From a virus, in the IMG/VR virus record IMGVR_UViG_3300031673_000059, positions 1 to 54,320 of that record: 54,320 nucleotides of DNA. One strand, 5' to 3'. The notes below the pieces were generated by a model. That model was not told the DNA's origin and did no database searches. It saw only the letters and a program-made list of their open reading frames with translations. Within the stretch, counting starts at the first letter, position 1; each line of letters begins with the position of its first letter. This document shows, one piece after another, positions 1,785-51,364 of the stretch. Made by a program: the position numbers and the translations under genes.

Positions 1785-1792
1785 GTTCTACC
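1785..1792 (-). promoter_or_regulatory. GGTAGAAC -10-like motif, 27 nt upstream of ATG 1757
   Basis: Plus strand reads gttctacc. The TAG inside the motif is the stop of the frame-B ORF ending at 1788. Confidence 0.45.
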
Positions 1793-2231
1793 GGCAGCGC
1801 CAGGCTGCGCGCATGGTCTCTGGACGAACCATGTCGAAGTTCTCTCTGTGTCGCCTTATGCACGGCTCCCTGCGGAGAACACGGAGGCGGGTCGTCCAAC
1901 CGCCACCACGAGCAACATACGCATCAGTGATGCTGTATATGGCGTTCAGGTAAGCCCCACGAACTGGCGGCTCGGCGACGAAGTCGAACGTCATGATCTG
2001 GTAATCGACAACGCCGCCCTGCTCATCAATCGATCCACGACCGCTTTGAGAGATACCGACGCTCGAACCTTCGTTGAGCGCAGCCCGGAACCGCTCAGCG
2101 GCCTCGCCACGCAGCTCGAAGGCCGACGTCATCGTGCTCGCCCACGATTGGGTTCCGGTGACCGGGTTCTGGTTCGACGCAGCACCAGTAGGTGCCTCGG
2201 GCAGCGCGACTCTTACCTCGTCTGCTGATGT
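1788..2231 (-). CDS. +1-frame continuation of the gp23-like module of the FGE fusion protein (frameshift, error or pseudogene)
   Basis: The C-terminal part of track ORF 1788..2516 (...SADEVRVALPEAPTGAAS...MTSAFELRGEAAERFRAAL...) continues the order of conserved blocks seen in the capsid paralogs. Over the same DNA, the tail of frame A is Arg-rich and junk-like. Confidence 0.4.
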   Translation of the reverse strand, partial: TSADEVRVALPEAPTGAASNQNPVTGTQSWASTMTSAFELRGEAAERFRAALNEGSSVGISQSGRGSIDEQGGVVDYQIMTFDFVAEPPVRGAYLNAIYSITDAYVARGGGWTTRLRVLRREPCIRRHRENFDMVRPETMRAAWRCR

Positions 2232-5200
2232 TGTCGAGGTAGAAAAGCATTCCGGCTCGGTTGTCGAGTGGTTGAAGAGGGGGCGGCCAGAAGGGGTTGG
2301 AGAGTCCCTGTCTGACGAGGGGTCCTGCGAACCGGAGGAATGCTGAGTCGCTGCCCCCCTCAGCGACGACTCGGTCCATGTGTCGCTGGTGGTTTTCGAG
2401 GAGCATGCCTGTAAGAGCTCTTGTGAAACTGTCGTCGACTCCTTCGAGGAGGGGGGCCCATTTCTGGGTGTAGCGGTTGACGATGCTCTGAAACTCTGGT
2501 GCCTCAGCAGCGGCACCTCCAGGCCGCTCTTGGAGTAACTCCTGCCTCAACCTCGTCATGGTAGCGAGGATCTCTGATGGTTGAATCGGCGGTGTCGCAG
2601 ACCCAGTTGAGTCCTCGGACGACGCGACCGTCGTCCACACCTCGCTCGGGGGTGCCGTCGTCGATGGTGGCGCAGAAGACGTTGAGTCCGAGTAACTCGG
2701 GTCCGGGAGCGCCGCCGACGATCCGGACCCACTCAGAAAATCCGAGTCACCTCGCTCTCCAGGCTGACCTGGGCCCGAGCCAGCAACGATGTTCACCGGC
2801 TCGGATGATCCTGGAGTCGAAGGCCTCTCCATGCTGGTAGGACTGCCAGTTACCTCCTCGGACGGTGCAGGATCCGAACCCCATCTGCTCGATGGCTCGG
2901 TCCATGACGGATCGTAGGTAGATTCGACCGCTGGTGTTCCGGGGGGCGATTCCGAAGGTTCCCTCGACGATGTGTGTGAGTGGTCTTGGGTTGACCATGA
3001 TGGCCGCCGCTTCTGCTCTTGTGATGTTTGGGCCGTAGAGGGCCCTAACCCAAAAGGGACGTCATCGGGCCCTCCATGCCGCCCGTGGACCGGCCGTAAA
3101 GTCGGGGAGTTCGGGATCGAGCCACCAGGAATCGGCCCGATCCCACCCCTGCCAGTCTCCGCCTCTGAGCGTGTAGGCGTCGATCCCGATGTAGTGCGCG
3201 ACTTCGGGCGAGACTCGCATCCAGTTGGCTGGGTTTCTGACGGTGAGCTCGTAGATTCGTTGGGCCGCCGCCGCGACCCTGGCGATAAAGGGAGGTCACC
3301 TTGCTCTCCAGGCGCACCTGAGTCCGACGTCTCTGACGTCGTTTCCGGCACCTCGCTGCCGTCTGGCGACGAAGCCCTCGTCCTCTCCTCTGAGGACCTT
3401 AGGTCGATCCTCGGCGGTGATTGCGATGTAGGGGGCGTAGATGAACCCGGTGTCAAGGACTGTGTCGCCCTTGTAGCCGAAGAGGAACCCCGTCCTGTCT
3501 CCGTCCTGGGACTGGTCAACATGGATGAGGCGGCCGCCGTCTTGGGATGAGAATGGGGGCTCTGGGTGGACCGTCCACCCAGGCCTGATCCGAAACCCGA
3601 GTCACCTCGCTCTCCAGGCCCCTCGGAGTCCGAGTCCGTGGTCGAGGTCCCAGCCCCAGACTCTGCCGGTGTCGAGGCCTGGGTCGGCGAGTTCGAGCCA
3701 GCAGATCCCCCGGACCCTGATCCGGGGCTGGAAGGGTCCGAGCCGACCGGCGTTGCGTCCTCCGCGTAGGGGCCCAACCCCATCCCGAGGTCGGAGTAAG
3801 CGTCCATGTGCTCGTAGTCAGCGTACCGGTCGAGCAGCTGCCCGGAAGGAGACATGAGACTGTCGCTCAAGGACCCCGAGCTGGTCTCGCCATCCTGGAG
3901 ATCCCTCTGGGGGTCGTCCGACATTCCAACTGATGGACTTGAGGATGTATGGGATACCGTCCTGGTAGAAGATGCCTCCGAGGTAGCAGCGTCCGAGTTC
4001 GCCGAGCTCGATCTCGCTGCATGGGTTGACCCCGAAGGCTCCGTAGGGTCCGAGCTAATGAACCCTGGCTCTCCAGGCTGTCCTGACGCCTCCTCGGTCA
4101 ATGTTGTGGCCCCTGAAGGAGGCGCCTCGCTCCCAATCCCGGGGGGACTCATCCCAGGAGTAGCTTCGGATGAGGAATCGATGATGTTGCATGCGCTCTC
4201 GGACGGAGAGGCCTGCGTAGGGTCCGAGCTAGGCTCTCCAGGCTGGTCGGAGTCCTGCGTCCTGGGCCCCTCCGACTGCTCGTCCGATGTTGCTGACGGG
4301 GAACGGATAGGTCCCGCCGTTGAGATGATATGTAGGAGGGAATCCGTAGTCAGGAACGGGGTTGATGTAGGGTCCGGGCGTTGCTCGCCGTTAGCGATGT
4401 AGCCATTCTCGGGCAGGTCCTCGACCCCTCGAACCCACTGGCACCTGGTCCATTCGAAGACGTTCCCGCAGTTGTCGTGGAGCCCCCAGTTGTTCGGATC
4501 CTTCAGGCCAACTGCCTTGTGCCCGTCCTCAAACTCGCCGCCGAACCAGGCGATCTTCTTTAGGTCCTCATCCGTGTCGCCGTTGGGGTAGCGCGTAGTC
4601 GCTCCGGCCTTAGTCGCGTATTCCCACATCGCCTCAGAGGGGAGCTGAAAGCCGACCCGCTCACCCTTCTCGTTCCAGAGCCAGGCCTGGTAGGCCGCCT
4701 CGACCTCTGCTGAGAACACCAGCGCTTGGTTCTGGACAGGCAGAGGCATGATGTCCGTGTTGACCTGTTGCTCCCACTCTCTCCACGTCAGCGTGAAGGT
4801 CTGATCTGAGTGTGTGAACTTGCAGTTGGTCAACCGTGCAAAGTCCAGCCGGTTGATGAAGTCCTCGACCTCACGGCACCGATCCCAGGAGACGCTCTCA
4901 ACAGGGTGCTCCCCCCACCTGCGCCCATCAGAGTCCTTCAACTCCATGCGGGTCGCAGGCCCGAACGGCGCGTCACCCATGCGGGTGACGTTAAGCCCCT
5001 CCTCGACCATTTCGGTCGTAGGGAAGTGACTCGGGAACTCACGTGTGACGCGGTACCACTCACGCCCGGTCCACGGGTACTTCGCCATCAGGAATGGCTC
5101 GTCGAAGGTCCGCTTGACCTGTTGCTGGGCCGTCTCATCATCAGGGTCCGCAGTGGGACCCATCATGAACTCACCCGAAGGGATCAGAACGAAGATCATC

Positions 5201-5400
5201 CCCGTCGTCTTGTGCTGATACTCAGCCAGGCCTTGGGAGTTGAGCCCGAGACACGAGAAGAGCTCAGTCTCCTCTACGCGCAGTCCGTAGGGGACGTCGT
5301 TTCCGGCCCTGCGGATTCGCGTGATGTAGTCGCCGCGATCGGCCGCGTCGCCTGTAGCCTGCCAACGGCGTTCTGCTGCTCTTAAAGCGGCGTCTGACAT
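2095..5400 (-). CDS. FGE-sulfatase (SUMF1/EgtB/PvdO-type) domain protein with long S/P/T/G/E/D-rich disordered tether and C-terminal gp23-like N-arm module
   Basis: ORF track, 1101 aa. FGE signatures: IPSGEFMMGP, HPVESVSWDRC, LPSEAMWEYATKAG, NNWGLHDNCGNVFEWT. The C-terminal QKWAPLLEGVDD..LLENHQRH..LQPLDNRAGMLFYLD matches the T4 gp23 N-terminal region and the paralogs at 33.8-35.8 kb. AGGAG lies upstream of ATG 5400. Confidence 0.8.
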   Translation of the reverse strand: MSDAALRAAERRWQATGDAADRGDYITRIRRAGNDVPYGLRVEETELFSCLGLNSQGLAEYQHKTTGMIFVLIPSGEFMMGPTADPDDETAQQQVKRTFDEPFLMAKYPWTGREWYRVTREFPSHFPTTEMVEEGLNVTRMGDAPFGPATRMELKDSDGRRWGEHPVESVSWDRCREVEDFINRLDFARLTNCKFTHSDQTFTLTWREWEQQVNTDIMPLPVQNQALVFSAEVEAAYQAWLWNEKGERVGFQLPSEAMWEYATKAGATTRYPNGDTDEDLKKIAWFGGEFEDGHKAVGLKDPNNWGLHDNCGNVFEWTRCQWVRGVEDLPENGYIANGEQRPDPTSTPFLTTDSLLHIISTAGPIRSPSATSDEQSEGPRTQDSDQPGEPSSDPTQASPSESACNIIDSSSEATPGMSPPGIGSEAPPSGATTLTEEASGQPGEPGFISSDPTEPSGSTHAARSSSANSDAATSEASSTRTVSHTSSSPSVGMSDDPQRDLQDGETSSGSLSDSLMSPSGQLLDRYADYEHMDAYSDLGMGLGPYAEDATPVGSDPSSPGSGSGGSAGSNSPTQASTPAESGAGTSTTDSDSEGPGERGDSGFGSGLGGRSTQSPHSHPKTAAASSMLTSPRTETGRGSSSATRATQSLTPGSSTPPTSQSPPRIDLRSSEERTRASSPDGSEVPETTSETSDSGAPGEQGDLPLSPGSRRRPNESTSSPSETQPTGCESRPKSRTTSGSTPTRSEAETGRGGIGPIPGGSIPNSPTLRPVHGRHGGPDDVPFGLGPSTAQTSQEQKRRPSWSTQDHSHTSSREPSESPPGTPAVESTYDPSWTEPSSRWGSDPAPSEEVTGSPTSMERPSTPGSSEPVNIVAGSGPGQPGERGDSDFLSGSGSSAALPDPSYSDSTSSAPPSTTAPPSEVWTTVASSEDSTGSATPPIQPSEILATMTRLRQELLQERPGGAAAEAPEFQSIVNRYTQKWAPLLEGVDDSFTRALTGMLLENHQRHMDRVVAEGGSDSAFLRFAGPLVRQGLSNPFWPPPLQPLDNRAGMLFYLDNISRRGKSRAARGTYWCCVEPEPGHRNPIVGEHDDVGLRAAWRGR

Positions 5401-5418
5401 AATGATCTCCTGGTCTCT

Positions 5419-51053: not shown

Positions 51054-51061
51054 GGTATAAC
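51054..51061 (+). promoter_or_regulatory. GGTATAAC, 5 nt, ATG 51067
   Basis: ggtataac ccagc atg. Confidence 0.55.
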
Positions 51062-51066
51062 CCAGC

Positions 51067-51270
51067 ATGAGCGACTACGACGATCTGATCGAGGCCCTCG
51101 ACGACTACCGAGCCAGGAAGGACGAGTGGTGGCGAGATCTCTCGCAGCCGGGTTTCTATGACCCGACCGACTCTCGACGAGACTACGCGGAGAAGGAGAT
51201 CGCGAAGGCGCACGACCACCTCGACAAGGTGTTTAGGGCGCTTGTCCTGAAGGTGATCGAAAAGGCTTAA
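51067..51270 (+). CDS. hypothetical small helical protein
   Basis: ORF track, 67 aa. Confidence 0.55.
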   Translation: MSDYDDLIEALDDYRARKDEWWRDLSQPGFYDPTDSRRDYAEKEIAKAHDHLDKVFRALVLKVIEKA

Positions 51271-51356
51271 GACGCCGCGAGTCAAATCACTAAAACTTCT
51301 TGCGTATCAGCCCAAAATCGAAGAAACTCTTGACCGCATTAAAGAGCCTCCTGGTC

Positions 51357-51364
51357 GGTATAAG
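51357..51364 (+). promoter_or_regulatory. GGTATAAG motif, 60-nt leader ending in AGGAGG before GTG 51425 (MVP gene)
   Basis: tcggtataagcgg, with AGGAGG at 51409-51414. Confidence 0.4.

Follow-up and report, generated by a model that had tools for sequence, protein, structure and literature searches.

The window analysed here, a complete 54,320-bp metagenome contig (viral record IMGVR_UViG_3300031673_000059; 60% G+C), is phage-like by gene content. It holds about 88 genes arranged as many short alternating-strand blocks, and its non-coding share is 8.6%. No tRNA genes were found in the window, and a megablast of its positions 1-50000 against INPHARED (50,697 phage records) returned no match. 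The subject of this report is a short element, GGTA(G/T/A)AA (hereafter GGTADAA), which recurs immediately before gene starts in the window, and its probable role as a promoter. Spacing is counted from this 7-mer; a preliminary description of the element, made from the sequence alone, counted from an 8-mer (GG plus a hexamer), hence 6 nt here for its 5 nt. The sites are given below, with orthologous positions in the related contigs L008, L011 and L012, which are described further on (SD, Shine-Dalgarno sequence).

6824-6830, minus strand: GGTAGAA, 6 nt before ATG 6817 of the HerA/FtsK-like ATPase gene; leaderless type
8083-8089, minus strand: GGTATAA, 6 nt before ATG 8076; divergent with the site at 8112
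8112-8118, plus strand: GGTAGAA, 7 nt before ATG 8126; divergent pair
16680-16686, plus strand: GGTAGAA, 6 nt before ATG 16693; orthologous sites in L008 (13841, minus strand, GTG start) and L012 (4173, minus strand)
21516-21522, minus strand: GGTAAAA, 6 nt before ATG 21509
24194-24200, minus strand: GGTATAA, 6 nt before ATG 24187 (DNA ligase)
26091-26097, minus strand: GGTAAAA, 6 nt before ATG 26084 (MILTHF...); orthologous sites in L008 (7382, plus strand) and L011 (7990, plus strand)
27360-27366, minus strand: GGTAAAA, 7 nt before ATG 27352; back-to-back with the site at 27368 in a 28-bp intergenic region
27368-27374, plus strand: GGTAGAA, 6 nt before ATG 27381 (AAA_33 kinase-like)
31168-31174, minus strand: GGTAGAA, 6 nt before ATG 31161; divergent pair
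31184-31190, plus strand: GGTAGAA, 6 nt before ATG 31197 (ClpS-like); divergent pair
33134-33140, plus strand: GGTAGAA, 6 nt before ATG 33147; in an 18-nt same-strand gap (candidate internal promoter)
39265-39271, minus strand: GGTAGAA, 5 nt before ATG 39259; in a 24-nt same-strand gap
40548-40554, plus strand: GGTATAA, 8 nt before ATG 40563; divergent partner of 40526-40532
44227-44233, plus strand: GGTAGAA, 6 nt before ATG 44240; a hairpin with a 13-bp stem (44149-44182) and TCGATGAAT lie upstream
46827-46833, minus strand: GGTAGAA, 6 nt before ATG 46820; divergent pair
46872-46878, plus strand: GGTAGAA, 6 nt before ATG 46885; divergent pair
50465-50471, plus strand: GGTATAA, 7 nt before ATG 50479; shares 11 nt with the end of the doubtful open reading frame (ORF) 50206-50475
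51054-51060, plus strand: GGTATAA, 6 nt before ATG 51067
51025-51031, plus strand: GGTAGAA, second tandem copy, 35 nt before ATG 51067
1786-1792, minus strand: GGTAGAA, 28-nt leader to ATG 1757 (O-like/winged helix-turn-helix (wHTH) replication initiator); no clear SD
5420-5426, minus strand: GGTAAAA, 19-nt leader with AGGAG to ATG 5400 (1101-aa FGE-sulfatase-domain protein)
11087-11093, plus strand: GGTATAA(T), 20-nt leader with GGAG to ATG 11114 (DEAD-box helicase)
14395-14401, minus strand: GGTATAA, 47-nt leader with GGAGG to ATG 14347
40526-40532, minus strand: GGTAAAA, 75-nt leader with GAGG to ATG 40450 (DHH-family protein)
41926-41932, plus strand: GGTATAA, 31-nt leader with GGAG to ATG 41964
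51357-51363, plus strand: GGTATAA, 61-nt leader with AGGAGG to GTG 51425 (major-vault-protein-like gene)
41247-41253, plus strand: GGTATAA, no gene start within 700 nt; a structured 190-nt stretch lies downstream

GGTADAA is present in 33 copies on the two strands of the window, compared with 4.7-5.2 in dinucleotide shuffles (maximum 11-12). The preliminary description had placed it at a fixed distance from 14 start codons, and at the same 14 the ATG follows exactly 6 nt after the 7-mer (6817-, 8076-, 16693+, 21509-, 24187-, 26084-, 27381+, 31161-, 31197+, 33147+, 44240+, 46820-, 46885+ and 51067+; signs give the strand). The five near-fixed cases that it added were recovered as well, with the ATG 5, 7, 7, 7 and 8 nt after the 7-mer at 39259-, 8126+, 27352-, 50479+ and 40563+, respectively. 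A scan of distance to start against shuffled controls showed enrichment at 5-8 nt: GGTADAA followed by N5-8 and ATG was found 19 times in the window, versus 0.20 times in shuffles (maximum 2; binomial p = 4e-17).

The intergenic placement claimed for the motif was evident too. Twenty-six of the 33 copies are strictly intergenic, and two more overlap only 11 terminal nt of doubtful ORF calls (p ~1e-25); 27 of these 28 non-coding-type copies aim at a same-strand gene start 5-75 nt away. Deep-coding copies number five (2238+, 3964+, 22482+, 35586+ and 51797-51803 on the minus strand) versus 4.8 by chance, four of them antisense. Nine intergenic copies stand away from any ATG, against an expectation of 0.45 (p = 1e-9), and seven of these are upstream of a gene. 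The four back-to-back divergent pairs reported previously (8077-8125, 27353-27380, 31162-31196 and 46821-46884) were all seen again, and a fifth was identified at 40451-40562, with one member leadered. Each of the five divergent intergenic regions (28-112 bp) contains one motif copy per strand and no other shared signal; even divergent start codons as close as 28-64 bp have their own copies. The statement that all motif-bearing genes head strand blocks proved too broad: 12 of the 19 are at divergent junctions, but seven trail a same-strand gene (24187-, 26084-, 33147+, 39259-, 44240+, 50479+ and 51067+, with same-strand gaps of 3-131 nt), as do several leadered sites. The motif also corrects longest-ORF start calls, as had been proposed: 6856 becomes 6817, 27351 becomes 27381, 40579 becomes 40450, 46958 becomes 46820, 31167 becomes 31161 and 40314 becomes 40563.

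Genes with an adjacent motif differ from the others in their translation signals. The SD is missing at these starts, as the preliminary description had it: one is found in 2/19 (both formed by the motif's own GG), compared with 37/69 other genes (p = 0.0007). The start codon is ATG in 19/19 versus 49/69 elsewhere (p = 0.005), and a strong preference for a 5′-terminal AUG is a known property of leaderless initiation. All seven genes earlier listed with a longer leader and an SD do carry the motif, at leaders of 19-75 nt; the SD part of that claim stands for six (GGAG, GAGG or AGGA 4-12 nt before the start) and fails for 1757-, where the SD is missing. When tightly coupled genes (same strand, gap under 15 nt) were compared with genes that have an upstream gap or a divergent neighbour, the motif was found at 1/42 versus 18/46 (p = 1.6e-5), and about half of the 42 carry a normal SD. 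In this uncultured phage and its relatives, about 40% of the transcription units have the word 6 nt ahead of their ATG. The motif is thus restricted to first genes of transcription units, while the SD is used by internal genes.

An alignment of the 25 non-coding-type window sites, and a pooled set of 41 sites from the window and its relatives, define the anatomy of the element. In the 25-site alignment GGTA is invariant, followed by G > T > A, invariant AA, a base that is mostly C or G, and a further position that prefers A. In the pooled set, 29/41 sites have the 6-nt spacing. The TA at hexamer positions 1-2 is invariant at all sites, about 10 nt upstream of the start, the hexamer ending 5 nt (range 4-7) before the ATG, and a G is invariant two bases before it. 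Housekeeping sigma factors recognise A at -11 and T at -7. At the base after GGTADAA (hexamer position 6, -7), the window sites show A3 C10 G10 T2 and the pooled sites C18 G17 A4 T2; the sigma-70-type T is therefore present at 2/41 sites, and no alternative register supplies one. The TG of an extended -10 (-15/-14) is likewise missing, with T at -15 in 0/25 sites (base before GG: A10 C7 G8 T0).

Nothing is conserved between -40 and the motif in the 25-site alignment, be it a -35 or another element. Scanning for the canonical -35/-10 sigma-70 consensus (TTGACA-like, 16-18 nt upstream) gave 6 matches versus about 11.5 in shuffles, and neither a sigma-B-type -35 (GTTT) nor UP-like elements are present upstream of the motif at any spacing to -40. 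Compared with group-3 sigma promoters (sigma-B/F, sigma-28), the -10 region in part resembles GGGTAT / GCCGATAA; the GTTT or TAAA -35 is not there. An archaeal-type TATA box about 26 nt upstream was not seen either: conservation is lacking around -26, the motif occupies -13 to -7, and internal genes have GGAGG-type SDs. Variants with one mismatch to the motif show hardly any enrichment in intergenic DNA (19/163), indicating that the word is read strictly, and they were not added to the site list.

The DNA ligase gave a graded series of homologues, and contigs with 64-71% identical ligases are syntenic with the window: L008/L094 (44-52 kb), L011 (22 kb), L012 (40 kb) and L009/L010, which belong to the 358,707-bp contig Ga0452204_000004 (JGI 3300041075), of which about 21 kb was read. 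The genes shared with them encode ClpS, the AAA_33 kinase, NUDIX, DUF3841, a glutamine-synthetase (GS)-like protein, the DEAD helicase and Gp23. From this synteny, the window belongs to a clade of very large phages, and a well diverged one, the capsid proteins of the window and L008 being about 30% identical.

In these relatives the arrangement motif-N5-8-ATG recurs far above expectation (L008, 6 observed vs 0.17 expected; L009, 5 vs 0.17; L011, 5 vs 0.16). At orthologous positions the motif and its spacing are kept and the spacer and flanks are changed. The ligase promoters read GGTATAA-GACTTC-ATG in the window, GGTATAA-ATGCTT-ATG in L008 and GGTATAA-GCACCT-ATG in L011; those of the MILT gene read GGTAAAA-GAGTGC, GGTAGAA-GTAAGT and GGTAGAA-CAGGAC in the same order, with unrelated spacers. 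The kinase gene and its neighbour have the back-to-back motif pair in all four phages (window, L008, L009 and L011). In L009 the ligase gene is operon-internal and overlaps the GIY-YIG gene upstream of it; it lacks the motif, and its ATG is preceded by an SD-like AAGGGGG. The start codon of the ligase is fixed by the N-terminal M1, which does not vary among 13 homologues.

Outside this clade the arrangement was not found. It is absent from the more distant huge phages LR745208 and LR756511, from the likewise more distant L013 and L174-L177 (the last with 60-64% identical ligases and a different genome layout) and from 568 kb of other metagenome loci. In 1.2 Mb of cellular loci (Planctomycetota, Myxococcota, Verrucomicrobiota and others) there is no peak before ATG, with 4 occurrences at 5-8 nt versus about 9 per four offsets elsewhere, and the word itself is only slightly in excess (58 vs 46 and 31 vs 18). 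Searched with the ligase, metagenomes gave one close relative only, identical to L008, and IMG/VR gave nothing closer than 53%.

From these observations we infer that GGTADAA, whatever its reader, is very probably the core of promoters for mRNAs with no leader or almost none. All sequence-level and comparative tests that were run favour this part of the preliminary description; its further label of the element as "-10-type" holds by position and AT-richness only, and the link that it implied to the host's ordinary -10 consensus was not supported. GGTADAA would be the core, and apparently sole conserved, recognition element of the clade's main promoter class, placed at -13 to -7 (A of the ATG = +1) with no -35 partner. 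The polymerase would melt the AT-rich TADAA and start RNA six bases downstream of the 7-mer, which at the 19 sites of the window would put the start at the A of the ATG or within 1-2 nt of it. A start at or near this A would yield an mRNA without a 5′ leader or SD, to be translated by 5′-terminal-AUG (leaderless) initiation, while the downstream genes of the same unit would use ordinary SD-led initiation. At seven or eight other sites the same element would drive transcripts with leaders of 19-75 nt.

One alternative keeps the promoter role and the leaderless outcome and takes the element to be a host housekeeping sigma-70-type -10 box, in a host rich in leaderless genes (Actinobacteria or Deinococcus-Thermus). 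In these groups, -10 boxes of the TANNNT type about 6-8 nt from the start mark leaderless genes, and GGTADAA matches them in position and AT-richness (PMC3160421, PMC6028130, PMC12340547). The invariant TA at the first two hexamer positions fits as well, and so does the presence of early-type ligase, helicase and kinase genes among those driven, as in most phages such genes must be read by the host enzyme. However, the T at the sixth position, one of the two bases that define a sigma-70 -10 box, is missing from nearly all sites in any register, and the AA at positions 4-5 and the upstream GG are invariant, unlike in the TANNNT of GC-rich hosts (PMC3160421). The poor enrichment of one-mismatch variants points to a reader much stricter than a housekeeping sigma, and the sampled cellular loci show no comparable usage. 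Taken together, we consider a host sigma-70 box unlikely.

A second alternative places the action of the motif on RNA, as a non-SD ribosome-binding or translation-enhancer signal (mycobacteriophage-like, or read by a phage-modified ribosome), with transcripts starting further upstream. In its favour, 6 nt is both the commonest distance to the ATG and the best spacing for an SD, read-through transcripts are likely across the same-strand gaps that hold seven of the sites, and huge phages carry translation-related genes (PMC7162821). Against it, the motif all but avoids the 42 tightly coupled internal genes, of which half have a normal SD, and it recurs 19-75 nt upstream of genes that have an SD of their own. 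In the divergent pairs, each gene would have to be transcribed from a promoter within the coding region of its neighbour, where none is conserved, and the ligase loses the motif when it becomes operon-internal. The motif is also AT-rich, not purine- or G-rich; its conserved part, TADAA in a 60% G+C genome, is what is expected of a melting element. To our knowledge, it has no obvious complementarity to the conserved 16S 3′ tail. Mycobacteriophage start-associated sequences are 13-bp words with an SD, located 3-8 bp before many starts, internal genes included; in the window no SD core was found in the motif, which shuns tightly coupled genes. The copies independent of an ATG, the avoidance of operon interiors, the start-codon and SD signature, the divergent pairs and the AT-richness all favour a predicted promoter over a ribosome site, which we regard as improbable.

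Slightly less probable still is an operator of a phage DNA-binding regulator overlapping weak, unrecognised promoters: the window does encode helix-turn-helix (HTH) or wHTH proteins (XRE-like, 10768-11097; MarR-like C-terminus of 12988-13554) and has a second intergenic word, TCGATGAAT, beside five sites at variable distance, but a 7-bp asymmetric, strictly oriented, fixed-distance word is atypical of dimeric HTH operators, its copies point towards their genes, and no other conserved promoter-like signal is present in intergenic regions as short as 28-35 bp.

Returning to a promoter for leaderless mRNAs, the identity of its reader is a separate matter. Given that there is no T at -7, no TG, no -35 and no such cellular usage, a phage-encoded or alternative sigma factor or a phage RNA polymerase appears likelier than the host primary sigma, and we lean slightly towards such a reader. 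The statement as a whole, i.e., that GGTADAA is the core of the clade's main promoter class, gives leaderless mRNAs and has a non-housekeeping reader, seems to us reasonably likely. A bolder version is tentative: the 7-mer might be the promoter of an undescribed phage transcription device (a -35-independent sigma-like factor or a phage RNA polymerase), in a clade of phages of 359 kb or more that neither INPHARED nor IMG/VR contains, with a large share of genes leaderless and possibly with a shift of host translation initiation such as has been proposed for the phage phiYS40.

Several points weigh against these conclusions. Pfam and PHROGs scans of most window proteins revealed no sigma, anti-sigma or RNA-polymerase domain, and precomputed Pfam annotations of the L008, L009, L011 and L012 loci list no sigma or RNA-polymerase gene, so that the case for a phage-specific reader is built on negative evidence. 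The cellular loci were chosen solely via ligase similarity and may not represent the promoters of the host. A 7-mer 6 nt before the ATG also fits ribosome-binding-site geometry. Transcription could start a few bases up- or downstream of the A of the ATG, and at the seven short same-strand gaps (3-131 nt) read-through would also yield leadered copies of the genes concerned. Finally, about 18 other unit heads are without the motif, hence GGTADAA is not the only promoter class.

Comparable systems share some of these traits. Start-abutting promoter boxes have been built into gene finders, as "group C" in GeneMarkS-2 (PMC3160421, PMC6028130, PMC4007540, PMC12340547). Like group C leaderless genes, those predicted in the window combine an AT-rich, TA-initial element at about -10 with a position as first genes of units, no SD there and an SD at internal genes. 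Unlike group C and its TANNNT, the element is GGTADAA followed by C or G, with no sixth-position T and with invariant GG and AA; the hexamer stands one base closer to the start (5 nt), and the element occurs in a phage clade and was not seen in the sampled cellular DNA. Promoters of the Thermus phage phiYS40 are served by the host RNA polymerase and have a canonical -10; that phage is AT-rich, and its host itself uses leaderless genes. The motif described here differs in being non-canonical. Most middle and late mRNAs of phiYS40 are leaderless (PMC3594737, citing Sevostyanova 2007), and the two cases are alike in that each is a large phage with many (here, predicted) leaderless mRNAs and -35-less promoters.

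Late promoters of the jumbo-phage non-virion RNA polymerases are AACA-N6-TA/G in AR9 and TATG in phiKZ, with leaders of 26-491 nt in AR9 (PMC5312081). They resemble the present case in a very short word at a fixed distance from the (here, predicted) start point, no -35 and a very large phage; they differ in sequence, AR9 mRNAs are not leaderless, and no split beta/beta-prime genes are present in the sequence read here. A likeness in sequence is offered by the Streptomyces coelicolor sigJ promoter GGGTAGAAAATCCACATG, documented as leaderless and judged not to be sigma-70-dependent (PMC3160421, Table 1). It has the form GGGTAGAA-N7-ATG, with GGTAGAA 7 nt before a leaderless ATG and the GGTA core in common (PMC3160421); it is a single example. 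From the group-3 sigma -10 (sigma-B/F type, GGGTAT) the element differs in having no GTTT -35 and in its invariant AA, which is outside that consensus. Sigma-B-type promoters need a GTTT -35, 14-16 nt upstream.

T4 late promoters (TATAAATA, read by gp55) are 8-bp, -35-less and located at about -13 to -6, and their mRNAs are leadered. The -35-less octamer geometry and the TA(D)A core at the same position are similar here, and this phage has Gp23-like capsid genes. GG replaces TA, however, there is no T at -7, and the genes driven would be of the replication type, not capsid genes. No gp55-like gene was matched in the window by Pfam or PHROGs.

Other signals were noted around these sites. After GGTATAA 41247, positions 41254-41450 (plus strand) contain a 190-nt stretch with unusually strong folding (z = -3.4); at its end stands a terminator-like hairpin of 9 bp, GC-rich and with a T-rich tail (41418-41440). 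Rfam gave no match for this stretch, which is a candidate phage small or non-coding RNA. Immediately downstream of the predicted start point, the leader of the DHH gene (40451-40525, minus strand) contains a GC-rich hairpin with a perfect 10-bp stem, GGTCTCGCGC-TTCG-GCGCGAGATC, which could have a stabilising or an attenuating role. Five copies of the word (T)CGATGAAT are present in the window, all of them intergenic and 6-44 nt upstream of a GGTADAA-type site (6874-6881, 24245-24252, 44192-44199, 46836-46843 and 48870-48877), with one further copy in L009 (9074) and one in L011 (7872); the word could be a regulator binding site. The gene heads 6910+ and 48902+ share GGGTATMNGTAAGCAG (6887-6902 and 48884-48899, plus strand), made up of a one-mismatch motif variant and a common 8-mer, which may represent a promoter sub-class or a shared leader. 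A scan of the window for intrinsic terminators gave nothing above shuffles.

A further word, TGTGGTAC, at 30842-30849, 34800-34807 and 35780-35787 (minus strand), precedes both Gp23-like genes and gene 30565-30828, all without GGTADAA, and may mark a second, perhaps late, promoter class. The copy ending at 35787 abuts the annotated ATG of its capsid gene, and the true start of this paralogue may instead be the second ATG (35769). The GGTADAA class covers replication and host-interaction genes, plus the vault-protein-like gene via a leader; that promoter classes correspond to temporal classes is a conjecture. Over about 43 nt before the capsid gene (TGATGT.AAA..TGATGTAGTTGTGGTACCCTCCGCATCAGGAG), the window (34780-34824, minus strand) and L008 (2050-2095) hardly differ, even though the capsids themselves are 31% identical. 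Within this element CTGATG/CATCAG can pair and CCCTCC could mask GGAGG; it may be a conserved late promoter or translational control element.

The following genes of the window were identified besides those named with the sites, or are given here with their extent.

33841-34779, minus strand: Gp23-like capsid gene (Pfam)
34825-35778, minus strand: Gp23-like capsid gene, second paralogue, adjacent to 33841-34779
5429-6817, minus strand: HerA/FtsK-like ATPase (Pfam)
23093-24187, minus strand: DNA ligase (Pfam)
51425-54319, plus strand: major-vault-protein (MVP)-like gene, >965 aa, cut off by the right end; has MVP shoulder and repeat domains
17055-18140, minus strand: glutamine-synthetase-like protein
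31197-31505, plus strand: ClpS-like
45463-46029, minus strand: hemerythrin-domain protein

Further homologues are the DEAD-box helicase (602 aa), the DHH protein, NUDIX, NADAR and a nucleoside deoxyribosyltransferase. The MVP-like, glutamine-synthetase-like, ClpS and hemerythrin-domain genes are unusual cargo for a phage. The two capsid paralogues form a tandem, diverged pair; L008 shows a single such gene. For the protein of 34825-35778 no relative above 28% identity was found among 5.8 billion proteins, and none in IMG/VR; a capsid-based comparison was thus not fruitful. The 602-aa DEAD-box helicase has a 1419-aa orthologue in L008 (16494-20753) with Hint/LAGLIDADG homing-endonuclease domains, which indicates a probable intein insertion in this relative.

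The nearest cellular ligase homologues (50-56% identity; loci L014-L093) come mostly from Planctomycetota metagenome-assembled genomes, followed by Myxococcota, Verrucomicrobiota and Obscuribacterales, and may give a weak hint to the host or to the origin of the gene. A host deduced in this way is suggestive only; those loci do not use the motif. The 1101-aa product of 2095-5400 (minus strand) has an FGE-sulfatase/kinase-like domain at its N-terminus and, after it, about 600 residues of low complexity that are rich in Ser, Thr, Pro and Gly. At 338-492, within the minus-strand genes 3-1757, about seven tandem copies of a partly palindromic 22-23-bp unit, GCAGTGTACTGCCCGAGGGTCGG, lie within a wHTH gene, the first in a row of three such genes, of which the remaining two match "replication initiation O-like/DnaD-like" families. 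The array resembles an iteron-type replication origin placed within the gene for an initiator, the arrangement of phage lambda.

Start-abutting boxes and leaderless mRNAs have been described in Actinobacteria, Deinococcus-Thermus and a Thermus phage, so the kind of arrangement is already known. What appears to be new is the strict non-canonical consensus, the scale, with about 27 putative promoters in 54 kb, 19 of them of leaderless type, and the confinement to an undescribed clade of very large phages. The motif provides a simple rule for gene starts and transcription units in a lineage whose genes are almost wholly unannotated, and at least six start calls change. It may also serve as a cheap marker for fragments of the clade in metagenomes. 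If the reader is phage-encoded, it would offer a compact, strict, -35-independent promoter/polymerase specificity to study and reuse. For the biology of these phages, the results point to a second large phage, after phiYS40, that would lean heavily on leaderless mRNAs.

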